Source: an uncultured virus (IMG/VR IMGVR_UViG_3300011912_000001) (Duplodnaviria; Heunggongvirae; Uroviricota; Caudoviricetes). Taken from it: DNA of 64,000 nt. The stretch lies in IMG/VR virus record IMGVR_UViG_3300011912_000001. One strand, given 5' to 3'. This document shows, piece by piece, positions 10,987 to 50,794 of this stretch. The notes beneath the pieces were generated by a model. It searched no databases. It was not told the DNA's origin and was given only the letters and a program-made list of their open reading frames with translations. Each line of letters starts with the position of its first letter. Position 1 is the first letter of the stretch. Position numbers and translations under genes: made by a program.

Positions 10987-11412
10987 CTATTCCTCCATTC
11001 GTTTTTTCTCAGCGTCAGTCGCATCCCGTGTGTTCTCAGGACGAGTGTTTTCAGCATCATCGTCTGCCCGGTACCGAACACCAACTTTGAGTTGTTTATA
11101 GGTTTTCTTGTCGACATAGAAGTCTTCTGTTTCTTTTCCGTTCTTGATGACGACACGGAAGGATTCAGGGTGATGGACATACGTCGGCGTCATAACCGTC
11201 GTCGTCGTTTTCCCTGTACTGATGACCATTGGCATCATGATGACATCACTGTCTTCAGGAAAATGTTCAAGTTTCGTGACGACACCTTCTGTAATGGTAG
11301 GTGGTTTGAATTCTAAATAAAAAGCATAGCCTAAACCGACAATACAAAGAACGATGATACCAATTAAAAAGATTAAAAAGGGAAGAAGTATTTTGTCTAA
11401 GAAGAAGTCCAT
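10987..11412 (-). CDS. membrane protein with one N-terminal TM helix
   Basis: LLPFLIFLIGIIVLCIVGLGYAF helix; RBS AAGGAG. Confidence 0.75.
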   Translation of the reverse strand: MDFFLDKILLPFLIFLIGIIVLCIVGLGYAFYLEFKPPTITEGVVTKLEHFPEDSDVIMMPMVISTGKTTTTVMTPTYVHHPESFRVVIKNGKETEDFYVDKKTYKQLKVGVRYRADDDAENTRPENTRDATDAEKKRMEE

Positions 11413-14894: not shown

Positions 14895-14920
14895 AAAAGA
14901 AGAGGGGCGTAGCCCCCCGC
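14891..14920 (-). promoter_or_regulatory. hairpin promoter-like element
   Basis: AATCA-N9-GGGC-GTA-GCCC-CCCGC. Confidence 0.65.
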
Positions 14921-18967: not shown

Positions 18968-19011
18968 GGATAATCTTCCTTTCTATAAGGTGAATGGCTA
19001 CAGGCACTGAG

Positions 19012-19041
19012 AATCATTAAGAGGAGGGCGTAGCCCCCCGC
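19012..19041 (-). promoter_or_regulatory. hairpin promoter-like element
   Basis: AATCA-N9-GGGC-GTA-GCCC-CCCGC. Confidence 0.65.
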
Positions 19042-19051
19042 CCTTTATCTT

Positions 19052-19255
19052 TTAAAAGAATAGATTAAGGAATAGAATGCCGAAGAATAAAACGAATTGA
19101 AGTAAGAGATTGAATCGCTGGACCTTCAAGTTCCCTTTAAGTTGTTGGCTGGTCCCATGCTCTTGAATGAGCCGAAGGGCTTTGCGGTAATTGTGTATGC
19201 TTACAATGAGGCATACGAACAACACTACTAAACAAATGATGGTGAAAGTAGACAT
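19052..19255 (-). CDS. small two-TM membrane protein
   Basis: hydrophobic ends; AAGGAGG RBS. Confidence 0.65.
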   Translation of the reverse strand: MSTFTIICLVVLFVCLIVSIHNYRKALRLIQEHGTSQQLKGNLKVQRFNLLLQFVLFFGILFLNLFF

Positions 19256-19256
19256 T

Positions 19257-19302
19257 GGATGTGTCCTCCTTTTGGATGTGTGTTCTCACTGGAGATGTGT
19301 GT
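19257..19302. promoter_or_regulatory. three GGATGTGT boxes (17/19-bp spacing)
   Basis: boxes at 19257, 19274 and 19293. Confidence 0.55.
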
Positions 19303-19306
19303 CCAT

Positions 19307-19331
19307 AAAAAAAGAGAGCCCGAAGGCCCTC
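19307..19331 (-). terminator. intrinsic terminator, cUUCGg loop
   Basis: GAGGGCC-UUCG-GGCUCUC-U7. Confidence 0.85.
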
Positions 19332-19617
19332 AATATTGTTTGAACTTAGCGTGCGTAATCATCATGTTGATGTCTTTACCTTCATGCTCATAATGAACAT
19401 CAAACCCATAAGGAATCTTATAGAAGACCTTTTCTTCTGGGTCGACAGAGACTTCGTAAAGACGCTGACCTTCGTTGTTGAAGGTAACGAGACGAATCGC
19501 GGTGATGCCCTCGTAACGGACACCATCAGCGTAGATAGCAGAGTATTCGCGCGTCTCCGTCGTATCTTCATGTGGAAGTGGTTTGATAGTAGTAGTTGGT
19601 TGGATGACAGGGTTCAT
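19330..19617 (-). CDS. hypothetical protein
   Basis: GAGGAGG RBS before MNPVI. Confidence 0.65.
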   Translation of the reverse strand: MNPVIQPTTTIKPLPHEDTTETREYSAIYADGVRYEGITAIRLVTFNNEGQRLYEVSVDPEEKVFYKIPYGFDVHYEHEGKDINMMITHAKFKQY

Positions 19618-19889
19618 GCTATTGCCTCCTCTAGGATATGGAATGTGACAATACGTTTTGATGGAATGCATGTTTCATTATATTTAACGACAGCTTCATC
19701 GAGAGGCGTGTGCCGTGTATCGACATTCCCCGCAATCGATTGCTGGCTTAAGACTTTCTTCTCAAAGTCAAAAGCGTTGATGCACGAGATATTGTTATTA
19801 ACGAATACCCCGCGCTGACCATTTTCTAACATAACTTCGACGAGCGGACGTTCTACCATTTTAGAAGAATGCGTGTCATAGAATAACAT
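19614..19889 (-). CDS. hypothetical protein
   Basis: translationally coupled on both sides. Confidence 0.6.
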   Translation of the reverse strand: MLFYDTHSSKMVERPLVEVMLENGQRGVFVNNNISCINAFDFEKKVLSQQSIAGNVDTRHTPLDEAVVKYNETCIPSKRIVTFHILEEAIA

Positions 19890-20074
19890 TAGATAGCCCC
19901 CAATTGTTTAAGAGTTTTTTTGAAACCAGCTTGACGTGCTTCGTACTGTTTCGTGAGCTCATCAATCTGAGCGTCGGTCTTCCGTTTTTCTTGGACAATC
20001 GAGTAAGCGGCGACATACATCGCAAACGTATAGAGAATAGCACCTTTAAGTAATAATTTACCAACTTTTTTCAT
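19889..20074 (-). CDS. small membrane-anchored protein
   Basis: one TM helix followed by a coiled coil. Confidence 0.6.
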   Translation of the reverse strand: MKKVGKLLLKGAILYTFAMYVAAYSIVQEKRKTDAQIDELTKQYEARQAGFKKTLKQLGAI

Positions 20075-20088
20075 AATGAATCGCTCCC

Positions 20089-20268
20089 TTAGAATAATGT
20101 ATTTAAAACGAAGATAAGACCGCCGACACCGACGAAGAAACTAGAGAAGGCTAACTTGAAACAATCGCGAAGCAGAAGGTACCGCGCAATATACGCGATA
20201 CCGACGACGTACGCACAAAACACGAGATACATGGATGCCATCATGAAGAAAAGCAATTGGTCGTTCAT
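20089..20268 (-). CDS. small two-TM membrane protein
   Basis: hydrophobic; RBS GAGGAGG. Confidence 0.6.
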   Translation of the reverse strand: MNDQLLFFMMASMYLVFCAYVVGIAYIARYLLLRDCFKLAFSSFFVGVGGLIFVLNTLF

Positions 20269-20591
20269 TTGCTTTCCTCCTCTAGGCGCCACGCTTGAGC
20301 ATATTTCTGATACTCACGAGCAACGTCTTCCCGTTTGCATGTTGCAAGTTCAACCGTATGCCAAAACTGTTTTCCTTGATAAGCCAACTTCACATCTTGC
20401 GTGATGACAGCCATATCCGTGTTCATCGTCATTTTCGGGCATAACCGTTTGATGACATGACAGCGGTGAGGCTTATCCGCTGAAGGTGGGGATTCGATGA
20501 ATTCCCCAGTTGCCGGGTTAACATTGGATGTGTATTTCCCCCGACGGAAGAATTTGTCCATTTCGACTTCCCGTTCAATTTGTTCATACAT
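20265..20591 (-). CDS. hypothetical protein
   Basis: AAGGAG RBS. Confidence 0.65.
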   Translation of the reverse strand: MYEQIEREVEMDKFFRRGKYTSNVNPATGEFIESPPSADKPHRCHVIKRLCPKMTMNTDMAVITQDVKLAYQGKQFWHTVELATCKREDVAREYQKYAQAWRLEEESK

Positions 20592-20620
20592 GTGAATCGC
20601 TCCTTTTCATATAAAGTTGT

Positions 20621-20651
20621 AATCAAAGAAAGGAGGGCTGTAGCCCCCCGC
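20621..20651 (-). promoter_or_regulatory. hairpin promoter-like element (TGTA loop)
   Basis: AATCA-N9-GGGC-TGTA-GCCC-CCCGC. Confidence 0.65.
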
Positions 20652-20653
20652 TT

Positions 20654-20836
20654 TTAATCTTGTTGATGCAGTTGTTCGAACCGAAGCGCTTGCTCCGCTT
20701 GTGCCTGTGTTTTATAGTAGCCGGACTGACGGTCATAGGGAACATCGAAGACCATGCCATCGACTTCATCTTCGCATGTCCGTCCAAGGTAATAACCAGC
20801 ATTAGAATGTAAAACTTGTAGTTCAGAAATGTTCAT
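20654..20836 (-). CDS. small conserved-looking protein (SNAGYYLG ... SGYY)
   Basis: 60 aa; RBS AAGGGGAG. Confidence 0.65.
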   Translation of the reverse strand: MNISELQVLHSNAGYYLGRTCEDEVDGMVFDVPYDRQSGYYKTQAQAEQALRFEQLHQQD

Positions 20837-20862
20837 GTAAATCTCCCCTTTGCATAGATTAG

Positions 20863-20893
20863 AATCAAGAGCAGAAGGCCGTATGGCCCCCGC
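20863..20893 (-). promoter_or_regulatory. hairpin promoter-like element (compensatory GGCC/GGCC stem)
   Basis: AATCA-N9-GGCC-GTAT-GGCC-CCCGC. Confidence 0.65.
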
Positions 20894-20906
20894 CCTTCAT
20901 CATAAA

Positions 20907-20968
20907 GGATATGTATAGCAATTGGATATGTATAGCCGAAGGATGTGTGTGGCTACTGGGGATGTGTT
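20907..20968. promoter_or_regulatory. four GGATRTGT boxes (17/17/19-bp spacing)
   Basis: boxes at 20907, 20924, 20941 and 20960. Confidence 0.6.
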
Positions 20969-20975
20969 CGGGATT

Positions 20976-21000
20976 AAAAAAAAAGGAGCCCGAAGGCCCC
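20976..21000 (-). terminator. intrinsic terminator, cUUCGg loop
   Basis: GGGGCC-UUCG-GGCUCC-U9. Confidence 0.85.
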
Positions 21001-21001
21001 A

Positions 21002-21280
21002 TTAACGCCAAGAACCAACAGGATTACCATGGTAAACGTCCCATGCGTCCATATAGGATTCATCGTATTCATCATGTGTACCGACCATGGATTCAACAGC
21101 AGTAATTGCCCATGTTCCCATTGCCCCAAAATGAGGATACCCGGGAACAAGTAATTCAGATTTATAAGACAGAAGAGCAGGATGTTGATTAGTTAAAGCA
21201 TTTGCCCGGTGGGCATCAACCAGTGTATTAATAGATAGAGCCAAGCGATGTAAACCATCAGAATAATCATATTGTAACAT
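21002..21280 (-). CDS. hypothetical protein
   Basis: likely start MLQYD, downstream of the hairpin element at 21311. Confidence 0.55.
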   Translation of the reverse strand: MLQYDYSDGLHRLALSINTLVDAHRANALTNQHPALLSYKSELLVPGYPHFGAMGTWAITAVESMVGTHDEYDESYMDAWDVYHGNPVGSWR

Positions 21281-21310
21281 TTGAACCATTCCCTTCAGTA
21301 TGAGATTATC

Positions 21311-21341
21311 AATCATATGTAGAAGGGCGGTAGCCCCCCGT
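21311..21341 (-). promoter_or_regulatory. hairpin promoter-like element (GGTA loop)
   Basis: AATCA-N9-GGGC-GGTA-GCCC-CCCG. Confidence 0.65.
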
Positions 21342-21387
21342 TTTAACATTAAATATTTACTATGTGCCGGAGGGTGAGTAAGCCCCC

Positions 21388-21419
21388 GGTCACACAATAT
21401 CCACTGGCGTAGCCCCCGC
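21388..21419 (-). promoter_or_regulatory. degenerate hairpin element
   Basis: GGC-GTA-GCC-CCCGC; AATCA absent. Confidence 0.35.
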
Positions 21420-21687
21420 ACTCCTGCGCGAGACTACACCTAAATCCCTCCTACCCGGTGGAACGGGGGAGACCTAACAATTAAGGGTAAAGCTTATGCC
21501 TCCATCAACTCCCCTGTTAGGAAGAGAGTTGATGTGTGTTGGAGGACTTGTGAACCCCTGACCGAACTCACCCCCAACACATAGGAGTGAGCACAGGAAG
21601 TCCGCCCTTTTGCTCTGAAGAAATCCAATGAGGAGTGGGCGGACTTCTATACCCGAAGGTACATCAGTTCGCATACCTCATTGAATC
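21420..21687 (-). ncRNA. putative structured ncRNA (~265 nt, at least 4 hairpins, 2 possible pseudoknots)
   Basis: UUCG hairpin 21649-21662; 11-bp stem 21597-21607/21637-21647; 9-bp stem 21503-21511/21526-21534; two 8-nt loop complementarities. Confidence 0.6.
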
Positions 21688-21714
21688 AACAAAAGAAGGG
21701 CGTATGCCCCCCGC
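21684..21714 (-). promoter_or_regulatory. hairpin promoter-like element (GTAT loop)
   Basis: AATCA-N9-GGGC-GTAT-GCCC-CCCGC. Confidence 0.65.
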
Positions 21715-21734
21715 CTTTTGCTTTTGAACTTGCC

Positions 21735-21977
21735 CTAAAAGAAGGGCAATCCATTGTCCTCTTTCGGAGGAACGAATGGTTTTTTCTTTAACCGCTCTTG
21801 CAAGCGGCGGTCGTCGGCTTCAAATGCCAACTGTACACGTTTCCGGGAAATGGCTCCCCGGTATTCCGCGTACATTCCGTTCAATTGGTGCAAGGACTTA
21901 CTTTCGTACCAGTGTAACGGGTACGGTAATACCAAACGCAATAAAGAAACAATAAACTCTCGTGACATCGTTGTCAC
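21735..21977 (-). CDS. small basic protein ending DNGLPFF
   Basis: AAAGGAG RBS; SSB-tail-like terminus. Confidence 0.6.
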   Translation of the reverse strand: MTTMSREFIVSLLRLVLPYPLHWYESKSLHQLNGMYAEYRGAISRKRVQLAFEADDRRLQERLKKKPFVPPKEDNGLPFF

Positions 21978-21993
21978 TCCTTTCTAGTTGTAG

Positions 21994-22023
21994 TACCTAA
22001 GCAAGATGGCCGTAGGCCCCCGC
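21994..22023 (-). promoter_or_regulatory. hairpin promoter-like element (GGCC-GTA-GGCC)
   Basis: compensatory stem; CCCGC flank; ACCTA in place of AATCA. Confidence 0.5.
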
Positions 22024-22090
22024 CTGTAAGGGTTTAAAACCCCTAGCCGAAGGCCCAATAGCCAACCGTATAGAAAAAGGGTGCCCACTC

Positions 22091-23179
22091 TTAATGAGTC
22101 GGCGCCCCTGTCACCGGTTTCCCTTCTGCCGCCTTCTTCACGTGCGTCGGGCGGTAATCATTGCCATCTCCCGGTTTCGAGAGACGTTGAAGCCCACCAC
22201 CGACTTCGACGGCAAGTGTCCATGGGCAGATTTGCACACACAGAGACTTGTCTTTGTACAGTGGTGTTGTCGCATCCTGCATCTTAAATGGAGAGATGCG
22301 AACATAGCCGTTGGTATCCTTCGCCACCGCACGACGGACAGCGAAAGCATTCCCCTCGACCATTACTACGCGCGTTGCAATCTTGCGTAGTTGTTGTTGC
22401 AACCGATAAGGAGAGTGAATCTTGAACGATTCCTCATACTCTTCGGTTTTGTACTTCTCGAAGTTATTCTTGCCATTAGAGAACAAGACCAACTTCATGT
22501 CTGGGAACTTAACGAGCACACTCTCCCAGATGAGGGGCATCAAGAACTCGATGCCATCTAGCTCTGCTACGTGTAACTCACGGACGCCAGCTTCCGCAAG
22601 TTTCAGAATGCCGGAGTACATGAAGACACGTAGCTTCTCCAAGTACTCTAATGATTGATGCTTATGACTCATTCGGGCACTGTTTAAAATGATACCCGGC
22701 TGAGCTGGACCAGCGATGAAGCCAGTCTGAGGATTCGGTGCCGTTTTCGGTGGCATGTTCTGCTTCACCTTATCGACAACACGAACCTCTTCTTTAATCT
22801 CCAACTTCAAAGGTTGCACCTCCTCTGGAGTTTCTGTTGCAGGTAAGTCTAGAACAAGCCCCTGCATGACTTGTTCCACTACTGGTAGAGCAGGTCGTGC
22901 AACTTCTTTCTTGACTTCCTTAATCTCCTCGTCAGGAGATGGGATTTCAAGAATCAGTGGTGCAACTTCTTCGGTCTCAGGTAATTCGAGAACCAAAGAA
23001 GCGACCTCTTTCTTCTCTGGTAAAATCGGTGTTGCAACAAACTCAGCAAACATTTCGTGTGCTTGCTGTAATTCTTGTTCTGCTAACGCAATGGCTTTTG
23101 CCATTTTGTTAACTTGTGCTTCGAAGTTGACTGCTGTTGCGTTGACTGCATAACGGTTGATTTTGTTTTGGATTTTCAT
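22091..23179 (-). CDS. protein with P/E/L-rich repeats and a divergent YspA/SLOG-like C-terminal domain
   Basis: repeated LVLELP/LILEIP/LVLDLP; LAEAGVRELHVAELDGIEF...KFPDMKLVLF. Confidence 0.6.
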   Translation of the reverse strand: MKIQNKINRYAVNATAVNFEAQVNKMAKAIALAEQELQQAHEMFAEFVATPILPEKKEVASLVLELPETEEVAPLILEIPSPDEEIKEVKKEVARPALPVVEQVMQGLVLDLPATETPEEVQPLKLEIKEEVRVVDKVKQNMPPKTAPNPQTGFIAGPAQPGIILNSARMSHKHQSLEYLEKLRVFMYSGILKLAEAGVRELHVAELDGIEFLMPLIWESVLVKFPDMKLVLFSNGKNNFEKYKTEEYEESFKIHSPYRLQQQLRKIATRVVMVEGNAFAVRRAVAKDTNGYVRISPFKMQDATTPLYKDKSLCVQICPWTLAVEVGGGLQRLSKPGDGNDYRPTHVKKAAEGKPVTGAPTH

Positions 23180-23230
23180 GATTAATTTCTCCTTTTTGTA
23201 TGTGGATTGAGTGACGGACAATGATAAAAC

Positions 23231-23255
23231 AAAAGACCCTCCGAAGAGGGCCTTC
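23231..23255 (-). terminator. intrinsic terminator, UUCG loop
   Basis: GGCCCUC-UUCG-GAGGGUC-UUUUGUUUU. Confidence 0.8.
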
Positions 23256-23260
23256 CTAAA

Positions 23261-25204
23261 TCAGATGACGAAGTTCGTGCCATCGTGACGCATACCGTCA
23301 AGCGATGACAATTCAACATCCGTCGTAAATGCAAGGTGATGCTGTCCACCTAGTACAATATAGACTTGCGTACCAAGTGGTGAGACTTTCATCTCAAACT
23401 CTTGAGTCAGCAATTGCTCCGGTGAATAGGTCTTGAGTGTTGCATCAATCACCGGTGTTGTTGCAAGAACAACAGGCTGTGGTGCCGCTTCTTCGACGTC
23501 TTCAGAAGCTGTGTCGAATAATGCATCAGCTTCTTCGGCAGGGAAAACAAACCCTTCGTCTGATGCATCGAAACCATCCCATACGTCTTGCTCTTCGACT
23601 GGAGCATCGACGACGTTTTCCTTGATGTCTTCCTCTGTAAAGACAGGTGGCTCCTCAACTGCCCGAATGTCGGACAGCTGAAGAGATAGACCTGCTTTTA
23701 CAGTGTTGTTGTAGGCTGTGACTTTCGCCACATACGAACGACCGGCTGGTAGCCACTTCATACGGTCTGCTCGTTTCTGAAGTGGGAAGAACCCACATTC
23801 AAGTTGAATCCCGACTTCGTCATTGACAGTCACAATTTCGATATCTTGATTCAAGATTCCACGTGCTGTGAGTTCAGCATGTGCTGTTGGAACCAATGCC
23901 ATGTTACCTAGCATTGGCTCGAACAAGAAATAGATTGGTTTGCTTGATGGGACGTAAACAGGAAGTTCTCCTTCTTCCCCCATCATTTTCAAAGCAAGGA
24001 CCAAGCCTTGTTCAAATGCATTCCAGAACACTGACAATCCTTCAAGACCGGACTTCTCGATGCTGTACTGCTGAACGTACATGAGCGTTGCCATCTTGAC
24101 GAGACCGTTCTCGATATCTTTCGTCCATTCATGCATCACAGAAGCGAGCTCTGTGTTCATGTCTTGGTTCAAGATAGCCAAGCGGTCTTTCTCAGCCATC
24201 GTCATGGCTTTACGCAACGCCGCGTTGCGCTTACCAGATGTTGTCATCTGGTTGTTCCAAACATCGTGTCCGATGCGAAGGCAATGCTTCTCCTTCAACT
24301 CTTGGAACGTGTAATTGCCCGTTGCTCGGTCTAACTTGAACTGGGCGTCGTTCGTTAAATTACGTTCTCCTAACATTTCTTTCGCACGTGGTTCAATCCC
24401 ACGCTTAAACGCACGGATTTGCTCCATTGCGTTATTCGAGTACGACAAGAGCGTGGCACCACGTTGTAGAAGCAACTCTTTCTCTGCCTCTGGAATTTCA
24501 AGGCGCTCTTCAAGCGCCATGAACTCTGTCAACATGTTCATGGAACGCTTAAAAGTTTGTCCAATTGCTTGAAGCTCACGGATGACGAATCCGCCGAACT
24601 CCGTGGACAACTGCACAGAAGAATGACGACGGACGACGCGTACGCCCGTTTCCATCTTCTGACCAGCAATGAATGCCGGTCGTAAGATGGGCATCTTCTC
24701 TGCTTTCACAGAGAGATGGAAGTCGACACGCTCCATTGTCTCTTGCCAGACGTTGCGATACGTCACACGTTCTTTCGGCTCGACTTCGAGCTGAGAAGTG
24801 CGGCGTACCTGTCCTTTGAAAATTTGGAACGTCACCTCGTCACGGTCTGTTTCCCATGACAAGATGTCGGAGTCGACGTCATTGTGCCACTCCATTTCCC
24901 CAGCTTCTACAAAAGTTTCAACAGCTTTGTAGAAGTCCTTCAAATCTTTTTCCGTTTGACCATGGATGAACTGCATAGTCGGACCAAACTTCGCGCGAAG
25001 TTCGGATAGAGCGACCAATACCAACTGACGTTGTGGCGAAACAACATCAGTATTTTGATACGTTGTTGCTTCCAGTGACGACACCGCCCATGCTTCTCCG
25101 TTTTCGAAGATGTTTTGTACTGCCTGTTGAGCTTCTTCGAGCGACCACACCTTATCAGCAGTGACATTAGTGTTAGTGTTGTTAGTGTTGTTAGTGTTAG
25201 ACAT
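23261..25204 (-). CDS. large hypothetical protein; candidate second (C-terminal) subunit of the RNA polymerase
   Basis: start moved to MSNTNN; adjacent to the RNAP gene; SVFWNAF motif; acidic tail. Confidence 0.6.
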   Translation of the reverse strand: MSNTNNTNNTNTNVTADKVWSLEEAQQAVQNIFENGEAWAVSSLEATTYQNTDVVSPQRQLVLVALSELRAKFGPTMQFIHGQTEKDLKDFYKAVETFVEAGEMEWHNDVDSDILSWETDRDEVTFQIFKGQVRRTSQLEVEPKERVTYRNVWQETMERVDFHLSVKAEKMPILRPAFIAGQKMETGVRVVRRHSSVQLSTEFGGFVIRELQAIGQTFKRSMNMLTEFMALEERLEIPEAEKELLLQRGATLLSYSNNAMEQIRAFKRGIEPRAKEMLGERNLTNDAQFKLDRATGNYTFQELKEKHCLRIGHDVWNNQMTTSGKRNAALRKAMTMAEKDRLAILNQDMNTELASVMHEWTKDIENGLVKMATLMYVQQYSIEKSGLEGLSVFWNAFEQGLVLALKMMGEEGELPVYVPSSKPIYFLFEPMLGNMALVPTAHAELTARGILNQDIEIVTVNDEVGIQLECGFFPLQKRADRMKWLPAGRSYVAKVTAYNNTVKAGLSLQLSDIRAVEEPPVFTEEDIKENVVDAPVEEQDVWDGFDASDEGFVFPAEEADALFDTASEDVEEAAPQPVVLATTPVIDATLKTYSPEQLLTQEFEMKVSPLGTQVYIVLGGQHHLAFTTDVELSSLDGMRHDGTNFVI

Positions 25205-25329
25205 GATTTTTCCCCTATTCTCCTGCATGTGCAGGGCCTCATACGGTATTTTCCGTCCTGTTGGCAGTAAATAATCAACAAAAAAAGAGGGCATCTCACC
25301 CCTCCACATTCGCTGTTACGATTTGATTC

Positions 25330-28300
25330 TTAGAACATACGACCCATTTTGAAGATACCTGCTTTGATATCTTCGCGGACTTTCGTTGGCGATGGAGCAT
25401 CTGTGAATACGCTGAGCACGTGTGTTAACTCACGAGCGAACGCACCACCGTGTTTTGCTTCATCGATTGCCCAACGGACAACACACGTTAACCATGTTGC
25501 GAGGTCATCGTAGAAACGACCTTCTGCAAGAAGATAACGTTGCTTCTCTGCATGCTGAAGACGAACAGCTAGTTCGTACTCTGCTTGAATCTCAAGCTGA
25601 ATGTCTTCGATGTTCATTAAACGGTTCGTCCACAAACCGATTGATGATGCTTTTGAAGTCTCGACGATGTGGAGTGCCGCCATCCGGTTGAAGACATAGT
25701 ACACGTCTTGTGGACGGTTTAGAACATCTTCTTCGTTGAATTCAAGCTCCCATGTGCGACCGTTGTTGTCTGTACGTTGTACGACTTCAAGGCCTTCTGG
25801 GATATCAACGAAGCGACGTAAATCAACTGCTTCTTTCGGTTCTGACCATGGGCAACCACCTTTTGGAGCAGACGTTCCAGAAAGGTAGAAGTCGAGGATT
25901 GGTGTCTTGTTCTCGAATGGTTCAACCATTAACGAGTTGAAGATGACGAGACACGTATCTCCATCGAAGTCAGCCCCTGACATCGCCTCTGTTGTCATGT
26001 CAACAGAGTTAAACAACACGAGTCCTTTGAAGAAGCCCATTTTCGCGGCTTTCTCATAGTAAGCTCGTGCTTCTTCTGAGCCGAACTTGTCGGTTGCGAA
26101 GACTTTACGAATCTCCTCGCGTTTCAATGCAGGATAACGTGCGGCAATGAACTCTCCTACACGTAAGTTGCCATCTGCATCGACAACGACTGCACAGCCA
26201 GCTGGAATAGACGGTACCCATTCCATCTTCGGTACTGCGACGCCTTCTTTACGTTGACGGTTGATGGACTTCACCGCTGACATCACCATGAAGATGTCAA
26301 AGCCCATATGACGCATTTTAGCGTCGTCAACCAAGACGTTACCTAATACGATTTTCTCAAGTGATTTCGTCAAGAGACTCGCAAGGCGTTGTTTCTGTAC
26401 ACCATCTTTCAGTGCACGTGGTGCTTGTTTGAGAACGGCTTTAACGCCTGTTTCTCCTTCGATGATGTCATTGAACTCTTCGTTCGCATCCAATTCTTCG
26501 AGTTTTGACTCATCGAAGTTGTCTGTAACACCAAGGAGTTTCAAAGCTTTCGATGCAGAGAACAACGATGCTTGAATCCGTCCTTTTGAAATCTGGTGAA
26601 GACGTTTGAGGTTCTTCTTCGGCGTTCCTGTCGCCAAAAGAGCCTGTGTTGCTACAGGCGCGATATCCTCTTTGAACTCTTTACGCGACCCTTGTACGAC
26701 CGCGAACTCGAAGCGTCCTTCGAGCAAAGCAGGAAGCACGTCAAGTTTCAACGCACCAGACATAAGAATCATGTCATATCCTGTTTCTTCTTTAAGCATC
26801 GGTGTACCGTATGCGAACGGTTTAACACCGGCAACACCTCGTCCTTGGAACGATTGTCCTTCATGCTCCAAAATTCCTTCAGCTACAAGGAACTGAGTGA
26901 TTTCAGGAGACACCAAGATACCACCGTCAACGAGGTTCTTTTCGAAGTCTTTTGTAACAGTAGTAATCGCCGGTTTCCCTGTCTTTTCATCCAATTTGTT
27001 GACGACTTTAGCAGTCGCACGAACAAGATGGGTAGGGTCCTCGATGATAAGGATGTTACGTTTGACGCCACCCATCATTTTATTGACAGATGTCAGCTCG
27101 ATTCCCTCTTTATCTTTGTTCTCATCATCTTGATAAGGGAAGCGGTCTGTGATTTCAAGCTGACCGAACAATTTGCCCATCACATTCGATGGACGCGAAC
27201 CAGACGCCGGCATGTCTGTACGCTTAGGGTCTTTATCCATTTTGAAGACCCGTTTGTTCATTGCTTTGTTCAATTTACCGTATTCATGCATACGATACGT
27301 TGCAACAAAGCGGCCATACACCGCAAGCGAACGTGCGGCTTCGTTGAACAAGAGTTTATGCATGTTTGCATACCCTTCTTGCTCTCCGTATTGCCAAAAT
27401 GCCGCCTCTCCCTTACGCGTTTGGGAAGGAGCCGCACTGTTCAAGGTAAAGACCTTGATTTTCTTCTGACTCTCATCAAGCAAGAGAACACCGTTCAAGA
27501 TAGTGTTCTTGATAAGAGCATCAAGCGCATCTTCCGACACTGTGCCAAATTGATTGACGACAGTACTCGATGTGAAGATGTCTGTCAGCTTCTCAACGAC
27601 AAGTGATACTTTGAGGTTGAGTTGCTTTGTGTTGTCATATCCTTCTACTTCTTGGACGATGACATCTTCCCGGTTTAACGGGTCTTTCTTTGTAATAGGG
27701 AATGTCGTTAAGACTTTCGCCGTATCACGGACAAGCATACTTTCACTGTTGCGTTGAACGAGTGTATTCTCGTTCATCACAGAATCTTCTACGCGTGTAG
27801 AACCACGTAGGAACATGAACAATTGAACCGACTCATCGATTGTCAATTGGTTCATATCATCTGTTTTCAACAGGTGCTTGAGTGTTTTAGGCTCAAGACT
27901 CGTGAACTTGCCTTTTGCATCGAAGAATGCAAGATTCACGTTATCAGCTGATAAGTTGAACGACGGTTTCTTCGGACCTGTCGTTTTCTTCAAGCCAGAC
28001 CGTTTGAACAACTCAGCAATAGAGAGTCGTCCTTTCGGTTGTTTTGCTGGTTTCGCTTTCTCAAACTTCGCTTTTGGTGCTTTTGCGAAGAATTGAATAC
28101 GAAGTGCCAACTTGTATTCTGACAAGAAGTTCGGGATTTCAACTTCTGCCATTTGCGTCAACATCAAAAGAAGTTGACGAGCACGTTTTTGAGCCGGTGC
28201 CAAGGCTGTTTGACGTGCTTGTTTGTTGTTTGCACGTCGTTCTTGCTTCTCAGCTGTTTTCATAGCCAAGACTCCTTTCTTAAGCGCTTTCTCTGCGCGG

Positions 28301-28443
28301 TATACACGTGCAGTAGCTTTCGCTACCTTTTTCTCGCGTTTTGAAACACGGATTGAAGCATCTTGCAATTCAGCAAGACGTGCTTTCGCTACTGCTACTT
28401 CGTTTGCCAATACGTTTACTGTTGCTGTTGTTACTGTTTTCAT
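25330..28443 (-). CDS. yonO: YonO/QDE-1-like double-psi-barrel RNA polymerase
   Basis: MSGADFDGD (DFDGD at 25957-25971), LVDGG, FQGR..GVK, ARYP, IDEAKHG; K/A-rich N-terminal extension. Confidence 0.85.
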   Translation of the reverse strand: MKTVTTATVNVLANEVAVAKARLAELQDASIRVSKREKKVAKATARVYRAEKALKKGVLAMKTAEKQERRANNKQARQTALAPAQKRARQLLLMLTQMAEVEIPNFLSEYKLALRIQFFAKAPKAKFEKAKPAKQPKGRLSIAELFKRSGLKKTTGPKKPSFNLSADNVNLAFFDAKGKFTSLEPKTLKHLLKTDDMNQLTIDESVQLFMFLRGSTRVEDSVMNENTLVQRNSESMLVRDTAKVLTTFPITKKDPLNREDVIVQEVEGYDNTKQLNLKVSLVVEKLTDIFTSSTVVNQFGTVSEDALDALIKNTILNGVLLLDESQKKIKVFTLNSAAPSQTRKGEAAFWQYGEQEGYANMHKLLFNEAARSLAVYGRFVATYRMHEYGKLNKAMNKRVFKMDKDPKRTDMPASGSRPSNVMGKLFGQLEITDRFPYQDDENKDKEGIELTSVNKMMGGVKRNILIIEDPTHLVRATAKVVNKLDEKTGKPAITTVTKDFEKNLVDGGILVSPEITQFLVAEGILEHEGQSFQGRGVAGVKPFAYGTPMLKEETGYDMILMSGALKLDVLPALLEGRFEFAVVQGSRKEFKEDIAPVATQALLATGTPKKNLKRLHQISKGRIQASLFSASKALKLLGVTDNFDESKLEELDANEEFNDIIEGETGVKAVLKQAPRALKDGVQKQRLASLLTKSLEKIVLGNVLVDDAKMRHMGFDIFMVMSAVKSINRQRKEGVAVPKMEWVPSIPAGCAVVVDADGNLRVGEFIAARYPALKREEIRKVFATDKFGSEEARAYYEKAAKMGFFKGLVLFNSVDMTTEAMSGADFDGDTCLVIFNSLMVEPFENKTPILDFYLSGTSAPKGGCPWSEPKEAVDLRRFVDIPEGLEVVQRTDNNGRTWELEFNEEDVLNRPQDVYYVFNRMAALHIVETSKASSIGLWTNRLMNIEDIQLEIQAEYELAVRLQHAEKQRYLLAEGRFYDDLATWLTCVVRWAIDEAKHGGAFARELTHVLSVFTDAPSPTKVREDIKAGIFKMGRMF

Positions 28444-28550
28444 GATTAATTACCCCTTTCAATTTGCGTAAGTGCGCCCACGATGTCGTAGTTTAAGGTC
28501 CTCGCCAAGACCGAATCATTTATATAAACTTCTCTTAATAAGAGAAGGGC

Positions 28551-29165
28551 TTAGTACGTGACTAATGTCGTTTTAATGCCAGAGAATAAGCTTGTGAAAG
28601 CAACAGTCGCATCACGGTTTACCCCGCGTGCGATAACGACATGGTGAAGCTTGTGTTTCCGTGCTACTGTGACCGTACGATGCAACGTTTTAAAACCAGC
28701 CCGGTCTGCCAGTTCTAAAACAAAGTGATTATCGGAAACAACAATGACTTCTTTCTCCAATGTGTGAAGGAAATCATACATTGGTTTACGGTACGGCGGT
28801 GTTTTCTTTAATGGATTTGCTAGACCAATCTTTTGGTCATAGGAAACGAAAACAAATCCATCTTTTGCTGTTGTTGCGCCGACCCCGTTTACCATCCGGG
28901 CCATGATGTTGTTGTTAAGACGGTACTTACGGACCATCTCCAATACATCTTGAAGTCCGACATGACAGAAGTGGTGATTTTTGCCGAACAATTCCGCCCC
29001 TTTCACAGCACGGCCTTTTACTGTGAATGCATACAGTGGGAATCTTAGTGCCGGTGCCAATTCAACAGGTGTTACCATTTGCTTGTTCTGGATTGCTGTT
29101 TTCTGTGCAGATGTTACCGATGTTGCTGTTGCTGATACGATTGCTTTAGTTGTTTGAGTTGTCAT
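28551..29165 (-). CDS. basic hypothetical protein
   Basis: AAAGGGG RBS identical to that of the RNAP gene. Confidence 0.7.
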   Translation of the reverse strand: MTTQTTKAIVSATATSVTSAQKTAIQNKQMVTPVELAPALRFPLYAFTVKGRAVKGAELFGKNHHFCHVGLQDVLEMVRKYRLNNNIMARMVNGVGATTAKDGFVFVSYDQKIGLANPLKKTPPYRKPMYDFLHTLEKEVIVVSDNHFVLELADRAGFKTLHRTVTVARKHKLHHVVIARGVNRDATVAFTSLFSGIKTTLVTY

Positions 29166-29212
29166 GAGGAATTACCCCTTTCGTCCGCATCCGGTTTCTC
29201 CGGCTTATTGGA

Positions 29213-29375
29213 TACCCCTTATATATAGGGGCTTATATAGAACCCCCTATATAGACCCCCTTCTATAGAGGGCCTTATATAGAGGCCTTGCTATAGGCAC
29301 CCCTATATAGAGGCACCCATATACAGCACCCTATATAGGCACCCCTCCATATGAGGGCCTACCTATATAGGGATA
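29213..29375. repeat. array of ~11 short palindromes centred on TATA(TA), CCCTATATAGG-like
   Basis: direct inspection; period roughly 13-17 bp. Confidence 0.85.
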
Positions 29376-29379
29376 CTGC

Positions 29380-29571
29380 TCAATACTCTGATGTAGGATA
29401 GGCGATTAATACAATCTCTTCGCCATCTACTACTACATCGTACAAACAGTACCCTTTGTCAGGATACTGTTGCTTGAAGAGGTCAATTACCCCTACCTCA
29501 AGCTCAACATCTTTATCTCCGGTGTATACGTATGTGTATACACCTACTTGGTTGAATACTGGTACTGACAC
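29380..29571 (-). CDS. small hypothetical protein
   Basis: GTG start after GAGGGGAG. Confidence 0.55.
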   Translation of the reverse strand: MSVPVFNQVGVYTYVYTGDKDVELEVGVIDLFKQQYPDKGYCLYDVVVDGEEIVLIAYPTSEY

Positions 29572-29651
29572 AACAAATACTCCCCTCTATAGCTCATGCA
29601 CTATATGTGCCCTATTGCCTACACCCCTATATAAGCGGGTGTTCTTACCAA

Positions 29652-30236
29652 TTAACGAATGATGCTATTAGGACCATGCTGTGCATAGTCATTACCAGCA
29701 CGGCGCCGCATCATCCGTAGCTCCCCATCTGATAAGGATGGGAAACGTACACGCATATCCTCCAACATAGGTACTGTAGGGCAAGGTGTATCCTCACCAC
29801 CTACGTACCATGATGCGAATACACGGGCATCTACTTCTTCCCATGCATTCGCATACTGTAAGGTAGCAATATCTTTGACTACCTTAGCTACTACACGCAC
29901 CATGAATGCATGTAGCTTATTGCGTACAAGTTCTTCATTGCATGCGTTCTCGTACTGCCATGCATGACGCATCTCGTGCGCCAAAGAATCGATGACTTGT
30001 ACGATGTCGCTATCCATACGCACACATACAGTGTGCATAGGGACATCTACACTAGGAGCAATGTATAACCCCTGTGTAGTGAGAGGGTGAAGTGCCAAGT
30101 AACCACCTGACTCCTCACCAAACCAGACTTGTAAACGTACTGGTAGTTCTAACTCTAGTAGCTCTACCATGTCTTGCTTATGACCCTGTAAAGAGTCATA
30201 GATTGCATCTTGCAATTCGTTCATAATAATGAACAC
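29652..30236 (-). CDS. HEXXH zincin-like metallopeptidase
   Basis: SLAHEMRHAWQ and downstream Y....EEVDA; first gene of the left arm. Confidence 0.7.
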   Translation of the reverse strand: MFIIMNELQDAIYDSLQGHKQDMVELLELELPVRLQVWFGEESGGYLALHPLTTQGLYIAPSVDVPMHTVCVRMDSDIVQVIDSLAHEMRHAWQYENACNEELVRNKLHAFMVRVVAKVVKDIATLQYANAWEEVDARVFASWYVGGEDTPCPTVPMLEDMRVRFPSLSDGELRMMRRRAGNDYAQHGPNSIIR

Positions 30237-30663
30237 CTCCTTTTGATAATCGTAGATGGGGGTGGGCGCCGAAAGATGTCCACTTTATCCATATACACTT
30301 ACCATGCCGCTGAGAATTTTTTGTCAATTCCACCATATGTAACCTTTTTCTCGACTCTTGCTCCGTGCCGCTGACAAAGTGTTCGGGCTTGCTATCTTTT
30401 CTCCTCCATCTCTCCCAGTTTCCATCTCCACCCGCTAAGAGCACGATAAAATCCCACATTCTAAGGGGGGGGGTGGGCGGAAATAAAGACCCCTCCCCTC
30501 TAAAACACAAACACACATTCTCAAAATAAAATTTAATTAAAAAATAAGAGTGATAAGGCACAAGTTAGGAAGTAAAATATGGTATTTATTGATAGGAGAT
30601 GATAGGATAAAGGCAAGACAACTAGAGGATTGAGACAACAGGATAGGAGAGGAGAGCATAGTC

Positions 30664-30855
30664 ATGAAAGAGTCTGTTCATTTACATTTTGCCGTCATCG
30701 AAGGGCGCCGCTGTGCTTCCTGTGATACGGTATTAAGAAGCCGCTACACGTCGTATAAGATTGAAGAGAGTCAAGAGATAGTAAGACTTTGTGGGACCTG
30801 TTCAAACGCTGTAGATAGCGTTTTAAGGGCACGTCAGGTAGGTGAAGCTAAATGA
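30664..30855 (+). CDS. small zinc-finger protein
   Basis: CASC ... LCGTC; RBS AGGAG. Confidence 0.65.
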   Translation: MKESVHLHFAVIEGRRCASCDTVLRSRYTSYKIEESQEIVRLCGTCSNAVDSVLRARQVGEAK

Positions 30856-31139
30856 TGAGTGTATTGTTGGATGATGCGTTCGATGTTCGGTATCAAAAGA
30901 AGCCAGATGAGTCCAATGGCGTCTTGTTGTACATGCATCGCATCGATGTCGGCGGGTTAATCGGAGATTTAGAAGATTTATTCTTTAATTATGAGGGAAC
31001 CCACTATGAGTTCTTTGATATTGAGATTGTCGGATGGAAAAAAGAGCATTCTGCCTTTATCTATTACATTCAATTTAAGAGAATGCGGTATACCCGCGAA
31101 AAAGCCCAAAAAGCACCACAAGAAGTGGTCAGTGCTTAA
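30852..31139 (+). CDS. hypothetical protein
   Basis: ATGA-coupled ORF. Confidence 0.6.
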   Translation: MMSVLLDDAFDVRYQKKPDESNGVLLYMHRIDVGGLIGDLEDLFFNYEGTHYEFFDIEIVGWKKEHSAFIYYIQFKRMRYTREKAQKAPQEVVSA

Positions 31140-31145
31140 GATTCA

Positions 31146-31325
31146 ATGACAACATATGACTGGTACGGTATATTTCTGATATGTAGTGTATTTTATCTCT
31201 ATCAAGAGACGTCTATTTACGTCTTAGAGGAAAATCCCGCGAAAATATCGAAGTGGCGGGCGGTATTCCTTTGGATAGGGTTCTTCTGTATCCATGGAGC
31301 CGTCCTTTGCTTATTAAAGGAGTGA
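31146..31325 (+). CDS. 59-aa membrane protein (not in ORF track)
   Basis: MTTYDWYGIFLICSVFY... with two hydrophobic stretches. Confidence 0.45.
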   Translation: MTTYDWYGIFLICSVFYLYQETSIYVLEENPAKISKWRAVFLWIGFFCIHGAVLCLLKE

Positions 31326-31877
31326 GTTCCCTTGAAAGAGAGACTCAAAGACATCACCTTGTTTAAATTGATGTTAGTTGGAATAGGAAGTCTCGGCGGC
31401 GTCACCTGTTTTATCTTAATCACCGACATCTTCAAGTAATACTTATTAAGAGAGTAAGAGAGACGAAAGAGAAAGACCTGATTAGTACAGAGTCGCTATA
31501 GAAAAACCAGTTGGCGGCGGGAACATACTCTTTGTATGTGGGGCGTTAGCCCTCCTATCCCTTATCTAATAGGAGTAGAGAGTAATAAAAGTCTATAGGG
31601 AGATACCTCTATAGAGAGAGAAGTAATAGAACTTCATTACCCTAGTAGTAGGCGAAGCCGGAGATATCTAACCCGGAGCTTCGTCTTTTTGCCGTGTTCA
31701 GCACTTTCTCTTGAGATTTGACGCATAAATGGTTACATTTCAGGCAGAACTTCTCTATGCTTACGCATCAGACCGTAATAAGCACAAATGTCAGGAAAAT
31801 AATCCTGTAAAAATTCGATTCATAAATGAATGGTAATCCTAGACCGTAGCGTGCCAAAAAGGTCAGGAAAAGAAAGG

Positions 31878-32606
31878 ATGTTGAACGTGGAAGAACAACA
31901 AAAACGTAAAGAAGAGCTCTCTTTGTTAGCTCCTAAGAAGTATATGAACATCAAGAAAGAAGCATTACCGTCTTCATGGAAGATTAGTGAGAAAGGCATT
32001 GAAGCCATTAAGTTCGGTGTTGCGATGAATAAGACGAAACATGGGATGTATGCCTCTATCCCTATGCTCTGTAAAGGCGAGGAATGCCAGTATGCGTCCG
32101 TTTGTCCAATTCTAGACCAAGGGTATGACCCGACTGGAGAACGCTGTCCGCTGGAAATCTCATTGATTATGACACGTTATGAGGACTACAAAGAAGAGTT
32201 TGGAGCCAGTGACGATGACTTCGTTGATATGTCTCTTATTAAAGACCTCATTGACTACGATGTTCAGCTCATGCGAGCAGAGAACAAGATGGCAATCGAT
32301 GGCGACTTCGTTGAGGATGTTGTAGTAACCGTCACAGAGAATGGCGACGAAATCACAAACAAACAACTCTCGAAGGCAACCGAATACAAAGAGAAGATTA
32401 CGAATAAACGTCATAAGGTATTAGAACTGATGAACAGTACCCGTAAAGATAAGAGTGGTGCAAAAGTCCAAGTCAGCATGGACCCATCGAGTTATGCGGC
32501 AAGCTTGTTGAAAGAAATCAATGCGGCGCCGGGTGAAATCATCGACGGCGATTACTTGGATGAATTACTAGGAGAAGGACTACCTGAAGAAGCTGATAAC
32601 GAATGA
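31878..32606 (+). CDS. putative terminase small subunit / packaging protein
   Basis: Cys cluster, helical acidic body, first gene of the morphogenesis block; call is positional. Confidence 0.4.
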   Translation: MLNVEEQQKRKEELSLLAPKKYMNIKKEALPSSWKISEKGIEAIKFGVAMNKTKHGMYASIPMLCKGEECQYASVCPILDQGYDPTGERCPLEISLIMTRYEDYKEEFGASDDDFVDMSLIKDLIDYDVQLMRAENKMAIDGDFVEDVVVTVTENGDEITNKQLSKATEYKEKITNKRHKVLELMNSTRKDKSGAKVQVSMDPSSYAASLLKEINAAPGEIIDGDYLDELLGEGLPEEADNE

Positions 32607-33646
32607 GTGAGTTCGAAAAACCTACTATCCCGGATATAATCAATGACTTTGAAAAAAAGCCAAAGAAATCCCCAAAGGTTAATGGCGGAAAGATAATTAC
32701 ACCTCCTGCCGCTTTTAAACTCGATGAATTCCTAGGGGCTTTTCCAAATTATAATGTCTATCATCGTGCCCATGAGATTGAGAAACAACAAAAAGGAGGT
32801 TCCCCGGCGGGAGGTCCACCGAAACCACCAGAACCGCCTAAAGGAGGTGAACGCACGATACGAGGTTCTGTTTCTGGGAACCAATACCGTCGAGCGCAAA
32901 AAGGACTGCAAAAAGCAGAAATAAATGCAGGGAAAGAAGCGTTGATGGGTGTCAGAAGCCGTATCAATAAAATGTCAGGGAAAAGCCGGGTGGGAACGCT
33001 AGCGGCTTTAGGACTCAAGCTAGGAGTCACACACAGCATGCTTGATAATGATGATGATACGGTGATGTCAACGCTAATTACGTCCTCTGTCTACGCTGGA
33101 GGTATCACAGGAGCCGTCTTTGCAGGAAAGAAATACTTAGATGGTGTCGATGAAGCGCAAAAGAAAGAGAAGCTGTACCGCAATCAGTCGGAACGCTTTG
33201 AAGCCGCCGCTTCCGGGGACCAGAAAAAGATTGATGAACTGAAAAAGAAGTACGGAGAAGAAAAAGGCGAAGAAATCCGTAAGCGTAAGAACCTTGAGAC
33301 CAAAGAAGAACGCATCAGCCGAACGTTAACGGCAGATGGAAAAGGTCCTTTGTCCCATGAAGACCGGGTGGTCAAACGAGGAAAACAGATGATGAAAGCC
33401 GGTAGGATTGGTATGGGTGTCATAGCTGTTGGTGGAGTCCTCTCTGCCCTGCATGGGATGAAGCGAAGCGGAGACGTCGAAGACATCAAAGATGACGGGG
33501 AAAAGAAAATCCGTTTAGAAAAACGGGAACAGAAACAAAAAAATAGGGATTATGGATACAACAACCCGACCATGGGGAGTATTGCCTTTGAAATGTTCGA
33601 ACAACGGACAGGGCACTATAAAATGGGCGATTCTAGATTCCAGTAA
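32603..33646 (+). CDS. putative virion internal/membrane-interacting protein
   Basis: Gly-rich hydrophobic helices and charged linkers. Confidence 0.5.
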   Translation: MSEFEKPTIPDIINDFEKKPKKSPKVNGGKIITPPAAFKLDEFLGAFPNYNVYHRAHEIEKQQKGGSPAGGPPKPPEPPKGGERTIRGSVSGNQYRRAQKGLQKAEINAGKEALMGVRSRINKMSGKSRVGTLAALGLKLGVTHSMLDNDDDTVMSTLITSSVYAGGITGAVFAGKKYLDGVDEAQKKEKLYRNQSERFEAAASGDQKKIDELKKKYGEEKGEEIRKRKNLETKEERISRTLTADGKGPLSHEDRVVKRGKQMMKAGRIGMGVIAVGGVLSALHGMKRSGDVEDIKDDGEKKIRLEKREQKQKNRDYGYNNPTMGSIAFEMFEQRTGHYKMGDSRFQ

Positions 33647-50263: not shown

Positions 50264-50794
50264 ATGAAACCATTAAAAGACGAATTCAAGGCGATTCTCA
50301 GAGAGTACGGACATCCCGTACTCTTGGTTCGCCAACAAAAACAAGTCGTGTGCAGTTGCTACGACGAAAAGACACAAACCGCCGACCGGGAGTGTCCATA
50401 TTGCTTTGGACTCAAGTATGTCCCGCTTGTTGAGAAACATACGGTCTATGAAATCGATAGCACGGTCCCTGAGACGATGCCGATGATTCAACAAGGTGAG
50501 AACTTCGGGATGATGTCGGTGCCCGCACGAGCCTATTACTTTGCTCCAGAAGCGCGTATTGATGAAGATGATTTAATCATGGATGTCGGTTGGGTCGGAA
50601 ACATTCCTGTTCTAAAGGAAGGATTCATTTGGGAAGTCTCTCATATTGACCCTGCTCGCTTCACAAAAGGTGAACTGGTCTATAAGAAGGTATTCGTCAA
50701 AGCCGAACCAGTCGAAAAGAACATCCGTGGTTTCCATATCCGACAGGTTGGAAATGTCATGAGTTATGAATTGATGGGAGAGAAGCCAGAATGA
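50264..50794 (+). CDS. neck / head closure protein
   Basis: CSC...CPYCFG motif; position. Confidence 0.55.
   Translation: MKPLKDEFKAILREYGHPVLLVRQQKQVVCSCYDEKTQTADRECPYCFGLKYVPLVEKHTVYEIDSTVPETMPMIQQGENFGMMSVPARAYYFAPEARIDEDDLIMDVGWVGNIPVLKEGFIWEVSHIDPARFTKGELVYKKVFVKAEPVEKNIRGFHIRQVGNVMSYELMGEKPE

Follow-up and report, generated by a model that had tools for sequence, protein, structure and literature searches.

A two-barrel polymerase chain related to QDE-1 and RDR2

A 64,000-nucleotide (nt) stretch of DNA from an uncultured virus of the Caudoviricetes (IMG/VR record IMGVR_UViG_3300011912_000001), referred to here as the window, carries two adjacent genes whose products probably form one RNA polymerase. 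The DNA comes from a large phage; in the protein database the polymerase record sits on a contig of 237,343 bp. The first gene (25330–28443) encodes a catalytic chain of 1037 amino acids (aa), a two-barrel RNA polymerase that resembles QDE-1 and RDR2 and lacks the C-terminal head/clamp region; the second (23261–25204) encodes a protein of 647 aa, called the second protein or the partner. Both genes, and the features described within and around them, lie on the minus strand. Single-chain two-barrel RNA polymerases (YonO, QDE-1, crAss gp66, and P23-45 gp64) are used as minimal models in the study of the universal transcription enzyme. A preliminary description of the locus had proposed a YonO/QDE-1-like polymerase split over two genes, and the two open reading frames (ORFs) of 1037 and 647 aa on which it was built exist on the minus strand as described.

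The catalytic chain holds two double-psi β-barrels in one polypeptide, the lysine/arginine barrel first and the aspartate barrel second. All of the motifs named in the preliminary description are present and are invariant in an alignment of 16 family sequences: DG (D506-G507), QxR..GxK in the first barrel (aa 533–541, Q533-x-R535...G539-x-K541; 26821–26847), RYP (R769-Y-P771), SGADFDGD (aa 822–829), which contains the DFDGD metal-binding motif of the catalytic barrel (aa 825–829; 25957–25971), and the bridge-helix-type motif IDEAKHGG (aa 993–1000; 25444–25467). The chain thus has the DxDGD motif, the conserved basic residues of the other barrel, and the bridge-helix D..K.G motif, where the assignment of the basic-barrel and bridge motifs to QDE-1 residues is made by superposition of the whole model and not residue by residue. 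Connector helices (aa 599–704; 26332–26649) lie between the barrels. DFDGD is the sole polymerase-type D-x-D-G-D among window ORFs of at least 250 aa, which contain three other D.D.D strings.

Fifteen homologs of the catalytic chain (859–1114 aa, 32–67% identity) came from a search through 5.8 billion clusters in which protein length was limited to 570–1815 aa. The Pfam family of RNA-dependent RNA polymerases (RdRP, PF05183) matched residues 762–892 at E 0.0015 with 17.7 bits, below its gathering cut-off of 23.8; the family members P0015 and P0016 carry a precomputed annotation to it. An AlphaFold2 model built from the 16 sequences had a predicted local distance difference test score (pLDDT) of 72 and a predicted template modeling score (pTM) of 0.63. 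Foldseek returned 21 matches to the model at E ≤ 0.001, all of them QDE-1 or RDR2. No match to the polymerase was found at the DNA or protein (tblastn) level in 50,697 deposited phage records, SPbeta included. PHROGs gave only phrog_8308 for the polymerase (E 0.0083) and nothing for the second protein; sequence searches of the PDB gave nothing meaningful for the polymerase, the second protein, or the 204-aa and 376-aa products of the neighboring genes, and an ESM Atlas search gave no usable match.

In Neurospora QDE-1 and plant RDR2 (PDB 2j7n, 7y7p, 7w82, and 7rqs), the slab, barrel, connector, DxDGD catalytic barrel, and bridge helix follow in the same order as in the phage chain. These enzymes differ in that they are eukaryotic, RNA-templated single chains with the head in cis, whereas the phage enzyme comes from a double-stranded DNA phage; their sequence identity to the phage chain is 12–15%, and QDE-1 is reported to form a homodimer through its head (PMC1750930). 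YonO, from the Bacillus prophage SPbeta, is another two-barrel RNA polymerase that is encoded by a phage and falls in the RdRP-like branch (as reported in PMC5467207). Its profile matched the phage polymerase weakly (hhalign E 0.021 over 172 columns, connector and catalytic barrel, polymerase residues 625–842 against YonO 381–552), and is too distant in sequence for family membership. YonO is also a single 839-aa polypeptide in which 214 residues follow the DFAKT motif and the C-terminus carries CxxC...CxxC, whereas the phage chain has no such CxxC pair (zinc-ribbon tail) at its C-terminus; YonO has no partner gene of the second-protein family, and it is described as transcribing late genes (PMC5467207). 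The virion RNA polymerase gp66 of crAss-like phage phi14:2 (PDB 6vr4) is a two-barrel enzyme of that RdRP-like branch too, but its match was marginal (Foldseek E 0.019) and it is a giant, virion-packaged single chain of 2180 aa. The catalytic chain is an RdRP-fold two-barrel polymerase, a superfamily relative of YonO and not a member of the YonO family. From the phage setting and by analogy with YonO, gp64, and gp66, it would be DNA-dependent.

The catalytic chain ends before the head region

The chain stops at residue 1037, 37–38 residues past IDEAKHGG (38 past G999), and ends in an invariant R-x-F; the early stop noted in the preliminary description is thus confirmed. Counted from the ID..K.G motif, 44 residues remain, compared with 214 in YonO (sequence from NC_001884) and 300–373 in 8 of 10 complete single-chain relatives on other contigs, the pattern giving no match in the remaining 2. 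The alignment of the polymerase model with QDE-1 reaches only about residue 1149–1164 of 1402. In published accounts, QDE-1 has its trigger loop at 1102–1136 and its C-tail at 1373–1402, where the chain ends, with the head around and beyond the loop (PMC9508822, PMC1750930). The phage chain thus has the slab, both barrels, the connector, the bridge helix, and a short tail, without the C-terminal head region, and no C-terminal clamp/head region was found on the 1037-aa chain.

All 16 family sequences (the 15 homologs and the 1037-aa chain) end no more than 5 residues after the invariant R-x-F, and no fused form of about 1500–1700 aa occurs among the family proteins retrieved in the cluster search. 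Stopping early is thus common to the family. In a relative that is about 92% identical, the gene junction and spacer are bridged by a 959-nt contig from another sequencing run (X1); contigs of run X12 span short parts only.

A conserved second protein encoded downstream

The longest form of the second ORF (23261–25309) gives 682 aa from its first ATG. The ATG at 25204 is the likelier start on the evidence of the sequences, because homologs start there or 8 residues upstream, a GGGG Shine-Dalgarno sequence lies 6 nt before it, and the stretch upstream of 25204 is conserved as DNA or RNA structure and not as protein. A model of the resulting 647-aa protein, built from 10 sequences, had a pLDDT of 70 and a pTM of 0.34. 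In this model an α/β domain (aa 20–145) is followed by a low-confidence stretch (aa 150–220) that contains most of the protein's most conserved motif, RPxFIAxQK...RxSSVQLS (aa 168–224; 24533–24703), in which P176, Q182, K183, V197, and Q198 are invariant and the monomer pLDDT is 42–60. Next comes a helical domain that may resemble the QDE-1/RDR2 head (aa ~223–412; 23969–24538); it includes SVFWNAF, already recognized in the preliminary description, as residues 391–397. The remainder (23264–23935) consists of further modules: a β domain (aa 424–515), an acidic disordered linker (aa 519–576, net charge −19), and a small conserved β domain (aa 580–647). Pfam gave only DUF6507 for this protein, at E 0.024 and below that family's cut-off. 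A DVDSD (D-x-D-x-D) string in the second protein was set aside, as it is not conserved in L002, one of the loci compared below.

Among the fetched loci, tblastn placed a homolog of the partner immediately after the polymerase gene in each of the 3 that contain a full family polymerase, at 55% (L001), 42% (L012), and 25% (L002) identity. This co-occurrence is a count over three loci, L012 being the only one gained from the scans of metagenomes and genomes. Loci with distant single-chain polymerases only had no homolog of the second gene at E ≤ 0.001. A search of 1.84 billion representatives with the partner profile returned 10 proteins: 7 stand-alone partners (605–670 aa), 2 fragments, and P0031, a 2040-aa match that proved to be an unrelated Flg_new (Listeria-Bacteroides) repeat protein and was discarded as noise. 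No fusion of polymerase and partner was found among these representatives. As far as these sequences tell, the partner is thus a rare protein that always occurs on its own, with a spread similar to that of the polymerase family.

Two further genes share this conservation. The 204-aa gene upstream of the pair (28551–29165) is retained in L001 and L002 at 71% and 28% identity, respectively, and the 376-aa gene on the downstream side (22091–23221, likely start 23179) at 50% and 33%. Both keep the same order there and have no family match; they may encode transcription factors or subunits. Since these neighbors are also conserved, synteny alone does not single out the second gene.

That the split could be an artefact, produced by a frameshift, an assembly error, or decay of a single-chain polymerase into a pseudogene, has almost no probability left. 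No support for it was found, the only related point being that the reading frame of the second gene stays open for a further 105 nt before the likely start. The 16 of 16 homologs ending at the same residue come from different contigs, the spacer with its own Shine-Dalgarno sequence is conserved in three other loci, the contig of another run crosses it, and neither the proteins of 570–1815 aa nor the 1.84 billion representatives contain a fused form. As far as the sequence data reach, this explanation is already refuted. Joining of the two ORFs by read-through or a frameshift was likewise rejected; L002 has a spacer of another length and sequence, and no fused protein was found.

Possible resemblance of the second protein to the polymerase head

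In an unbiased fold comparison with 48,161 chains, the best match of the second protein, through its helical domain, was QDE-1 1198–1340, which is the head, and the third was maize RDR2. The likeness is weak, and an unrelated helical protein matched equally well. The QDE-1 region matched starts about 35–50 residues past the point where the alignment of the catalytic chain ends. The weight of the match would come from this context: the top match is the polymerase family that had been predicted in advance, and its position lies just past the truncation. In addition, the partner profile gave weak hmmsearch matches at 749–837 in the single-chain relatives L003/L013, colinear with the end point of the catalytic chain and just past it.

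Predicted association of the two proteins

Complex prediction was performed with polymerase residues 416–1037 (alignment of 16 rows) and partner residues 150–520 (10 rows). The interaction prediction score from aligned errors (ipSAE) was 0.74, 0.75, and 0.80 (median 0.75), against 0.01 for the best of three controls; 116 of 157 solved complexes clear the pass mark applied, whereas of 215 mismatched pairs 2 do. At least 85% of contacts were common to the runs, the pLDDT of the partner was 81, and interface contacts had an expected error of about 1 Å. The complex model supports binding of the two proteins; as a prediction it does not show that they bind.

On the polymerase, the predicted interface consists of the connector helices (599–627 and 666–703), the post-barrel helix (940–955), and the tail (1012–1037) with the invariant R1035 and F1037. 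The partner residues involved are 150–227, a stretch that covers the conserved motif, together with 319–324 and 387–408 around SVFWNAF; the most conserved partner motif is of low confidence in the protein alone, yet falls in the predicted interface. Interface residues of the partner are more conserved than the rest (0.589 vs. 0.488, permutation p 0.0002), as are those of the polymerase connector, residues 599–704 (0.598 vs. 0.510, permutation p 0.035). According to PMC10770324, the clamp of gp64, QDE-1, gp66, and bacterial RNA polymerase is made of the inter-barrel connector, a helix or loop after the catalytic barrel, and a C-terminal region. The predicted interface would use the first two of these elements, and the third corresponds to the part that is absent from the catalytic chain. 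The clamp surface defined in that source for the Thermus phage enzymes, the nonvirion P23-45 gp64 and P74-26 gp62 and the virion, clamp-less gp96 (PDB 8f72, 8f5m, and 8h2m), matches the predicted interface, and gp96 is described there as also having no C-terminal region. These enzymes differ from the phage pair in that gp64 carries its clamp in cis and gp96, fused to a tape measure protein, has no clamp and no known separate clamp subunit in that account.

Collectively, a truncation conserved through the family, a syntenic partner gene for which no fused form was found, and a passing complex prediction are the computed support for a polymerase in two pieces. We consider it probable that the two-barrel RNA polymerase of the phage is a heterodimer whose clamp/head is completed by the second protein. 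The proposal in the preliminary description that the second ORF supplies the missing C-terminal lobe gains computational support from the end of the QDE-1 alignment, the motif-to-end lengths, the three syntenic loci, the head match, and the predicted complex. From the model, we infer that the two proteins would associate in cells.

Several results weigh against this conclusion. Foldseek of the second protein against the PDB and BFVD gave 0 matches at E ≤ 0.001, hhalign of the partner family against the single-chain relative family gave E 0.68, the partner profile had 0 matches among PDB sequences, and its hmmsearch matches to 15 polymerases, though colinear, were weak (best domain E 0.011); in these comparisons, sequence homology of the second protein to any polymerase C-terminus was not found. 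At 647 aa the protein is also much larger than the missing region (about 170–330 aa). The alignments behind the complex prediction are shallow, conservation across the polymerase core (416–1037) does not distinguish the interface from the rest (0.603 vs. 0.601, permutation p 0.49), and the complex score may derive partly from the predictor's memory of solved single-chain RdRPs with the head in cis. Furthermore, a terminator-like hairpin stands between the two genes, and P23-45 gp96, a two-barrel RNA polymerase without the C-terminal clamp element, is reported to extend RNA on its own (PMC10770324).

The sequence and size data bear mainly on the origin of the partner. It could be a true subunit without being a fission product: the enzyme would have shed its ancestral C-terminal clamp, and a multidomain protein unrelated to it, for example a specificity or processivity factor, would have come to dock at the same surface. 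We regard this as unlikely. In its favor, the partner shares no detectable sequence homology with polymerase C-termini, is two to four times the size of the missing region, has four modules without a polymerase counterpart, and resembles the head no better than it does an unrelated helical protein. Recruitment would nevertheless leave the RdRP head as the best fold match among 48,161 chains, with RDR2 also in the top three, and the colinear position of the weak hmmsearch matches to be accounted for. These data do not separate fission of an ancestral chain from recruitment of another protein; the match to the head, together with the weak but colinear matches in single-chain relatives, inclines us toward fission.

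The gp96 precedent and the genetic arrangement bear on whether the partner is a subunit at all. The 1037-aa chain might be a complete, self-sufficient, clamp-less polymerase like gp96, of which fragments reportedly still extend RNA (PMC10770324), and the downstream gene a conserved neighbor with a separate function. The separate leader and terminator-like hairpin between the genes would fit such an arrangement, and the conservation of the 204-aa and 376-aa neighbors means that the synteny could reflect a conserved block. Set against these points are the large difference between the complex prediction and its best control, at a mark that few mismatched pairs reach, the conservation of the interface on the second protein, and the placement of the invariant C-terminal R-x-F of the polymerase within the predicted interface; a self-sufficient chain with an unrelated neighbor is, in our estimate, improbable. 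Because the clamp-less gp96 core extends RNA, the catalytic chain may, by analogy, be active alone in scaffold assays even if the heterodimer model is right.

A proposed two-subunit enzyme

In the proposed heterodimer, the catalytic chain would contribute an N-terminal slab-like region, both double-psi barrels, the connector, the bridge-helix motif, and a short tail. The 647-aa product would dock on the connector helices, the helix after the catalytic barrel, and the C-terminal tail, and so provide the third, C-terminal clamp/head element that is part of the same chain in QDE-1, RDR2, YonO-like phage enzymes, and P23-45 gp64. The completed clamp would then close over the nucleic-acid cleft. 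The N-terminal α/β domain, β domain, acidic linker, and C-terminal β domain of the partner would be left free for template or promoter contacts or for regulation, functions that we infer from the model. Involvement of these modules in promoter choice is speculation; how YonO selects its own promoters is left open in the report on that enzyme (PMC5467207).

A bolder version of the proposal is tentative and, on balance, doubtful: the enzyme would be an obligate two-subunit RdRP-fold polymerase whose detachable head/clamp subunit, with its added nucleic-acid-recognition modules, is a promoter-specificity device, a built-in functional analog of sigma, and the pair a living intermediate between single-chain and multisubunit two-barrel polymerases. 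Phage RNA polymerases in several pieces have a precedent in the split multisubunit enzymes of jumbo phages of the phiKZ/AR9 type (PMC7598289, PMC7824862). Those are described as β/β′-type enzymes with the barrels on different subunits (PMC7824862, PMC7598289), whereas the phage pair keeps both barrels on one chain and only the C-terminal element of the clamp is separate. The literature consulted on YonO and phage RNA polymerases, two-barrel polymerases, and split YonO-like enzymes describes no phage polymerase of the single-chain RdRP fold whose clamp element is encoded by a gene of its own, though the family may be listed in Supplementary Data 3 and 4, the survey tables of PMC10770324.

A separate clamp element would allow the core to be assayed with and without the clamp/head, a clean test of what the clamp contributes. 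The second protein is a candidate promoter-recognition subunit, and the pair would be an example of polymerase domains becoming subunits. For the annotation of phage genomes, the analysis flags a polymerase family that is currently unannotated.

The spacer and recurring hairpins

The two genes are separated by a spacer or leader of 125 nt (25205–25329) containing hairpins, a T-run, and a Shine-Dalgarno sequence. Its terminator-like hairpin (25286–25305) reads GGAGGGG-N-CCCTC and is followed by T7-G-TTGATT; a further hairpin stands directly before the Shine-Dalgarno sequence of the second gene. Upstream of the polymerase gene, at 28529–28547, an AT-rich hairpin CTTCTCTT-ATT-AAGAGAAG is followed by TTTATATAAATGATT. 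The hairpins assigned to the region before each gene in the preliminary description are therefore real, and the AATCA reported with them reads TGATT on the coding strand.

At the DNA level, conservation of the spacer far exceeds that of the genes on either side in L001 (counterpart at 11055–11190) and L012 (5033–5160), and the spacer is partly conserved in L002 (10960–11135). Across the four sequences, two of the four pairs of a 4-bp hairpin at 25243–25256 change on both sides and stay paired. RNAalifold pairs the CCCUCUUUU arm, the 3′ arm of the terminator, with the ribosome-binding region of the second gene. These features suggest that the spacer may act as a leader controlling how much of the second subunit is made. 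A comparison of 22000–31800 with Rfam found nothing near a gathering score.

The hairpins before the two genes are part of a larger group of terminator-like elements on the minus strand: a scan of 19000–33000 found 30, against 12.4 ± 3.9 in shuffled sequences. A GC-rich hairpin of the form GGCGGGGGGC-N-GCCCYTC with a T-run and TTGATT recurs on the minus strand at 14898, 15623, 20631, 21694, and 25286. The recurring unit could be a terminator plus a shared downstream motif that is part of a promoter. Short intergenic direct repeats occur on the same strand at approximately 19240–19330, 20900–21000, and 29150–29260. Units resembling ACACATCC come after the hairpins at 19331 and 21000, and CTATATA units lie upstream of the 204-aa gene. 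These intergenic repeats are candidate operator or phage-promoter repeats.

N-terminal extension and genome context

The polymerase begins with a Lys/Ala-rich extension (aa 1–160; 27964–28443) of 17.5% Ala and 16.2% Lys with a net charge of +27, compared with 8.0%, 8.1%, and −10 for the rest of the chain. The extension is genuine coding sequence and is present in 3 of the 16 family members, being conserved in P0003 and P0008. In the model, residues 3–98 form one long helix of low confidence and residues 95–139 a disordered K/P/A-rich linker; only residues 99–160 have a K/P/A-rich, tail-like composition. The preliminary description had called this N-terminus histone-H1-like, but the likeness is one of composition only, as Pfam matched no family, linker histone included, at E ≤ 10, residues 3–98 are predicted to be helical, and most family members do not have the extension. 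It is likeliest a nonspecific nucleic-acid-binding or coiled-coil appendage.

Two divergent arms make up the surrounding genome. The plus-strand arm, from about 31.8 kb, encodes an intein-bearing terminase-like protein, portal, protease, major head protein, an immunoglobulin-like protein, two sheath-like proteins, and a protein of 1383 aa. The minus-strand arm, from about 30.5 kb downward, contains mostly small genes of unknown function together with nicotinamide adenine dinucleotide (NAD)-salvage genes. The polymerase is the fourth listed ORF (of at least 80 aa) from the divergence point of the arms. Of the early role proposed in the preliminary description, this bears out only the position near the divergence point.

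No tRNA genes were found in the window. The terminase-like gene (35857–37596, plus strand) contains an intein with a LAGLIDADG homing-endonuclease domain, and the adjacent plus-strand genes at 50791–52353 and 52942–54525 both match tail-sheath families. Among the NAD-salvage genes, nicotinamide phosphoribosyltransferase is present as two overlapping minus-strand ORFs, 1515–2348 and 2332–3117, with NAMPT_N in one and the NAPRTase catalytic domain in the other. These ORFs adjoin a ribose-phosphate pyrophosphokinase gene (625–1464) and represent either a split gene or a frameshift.

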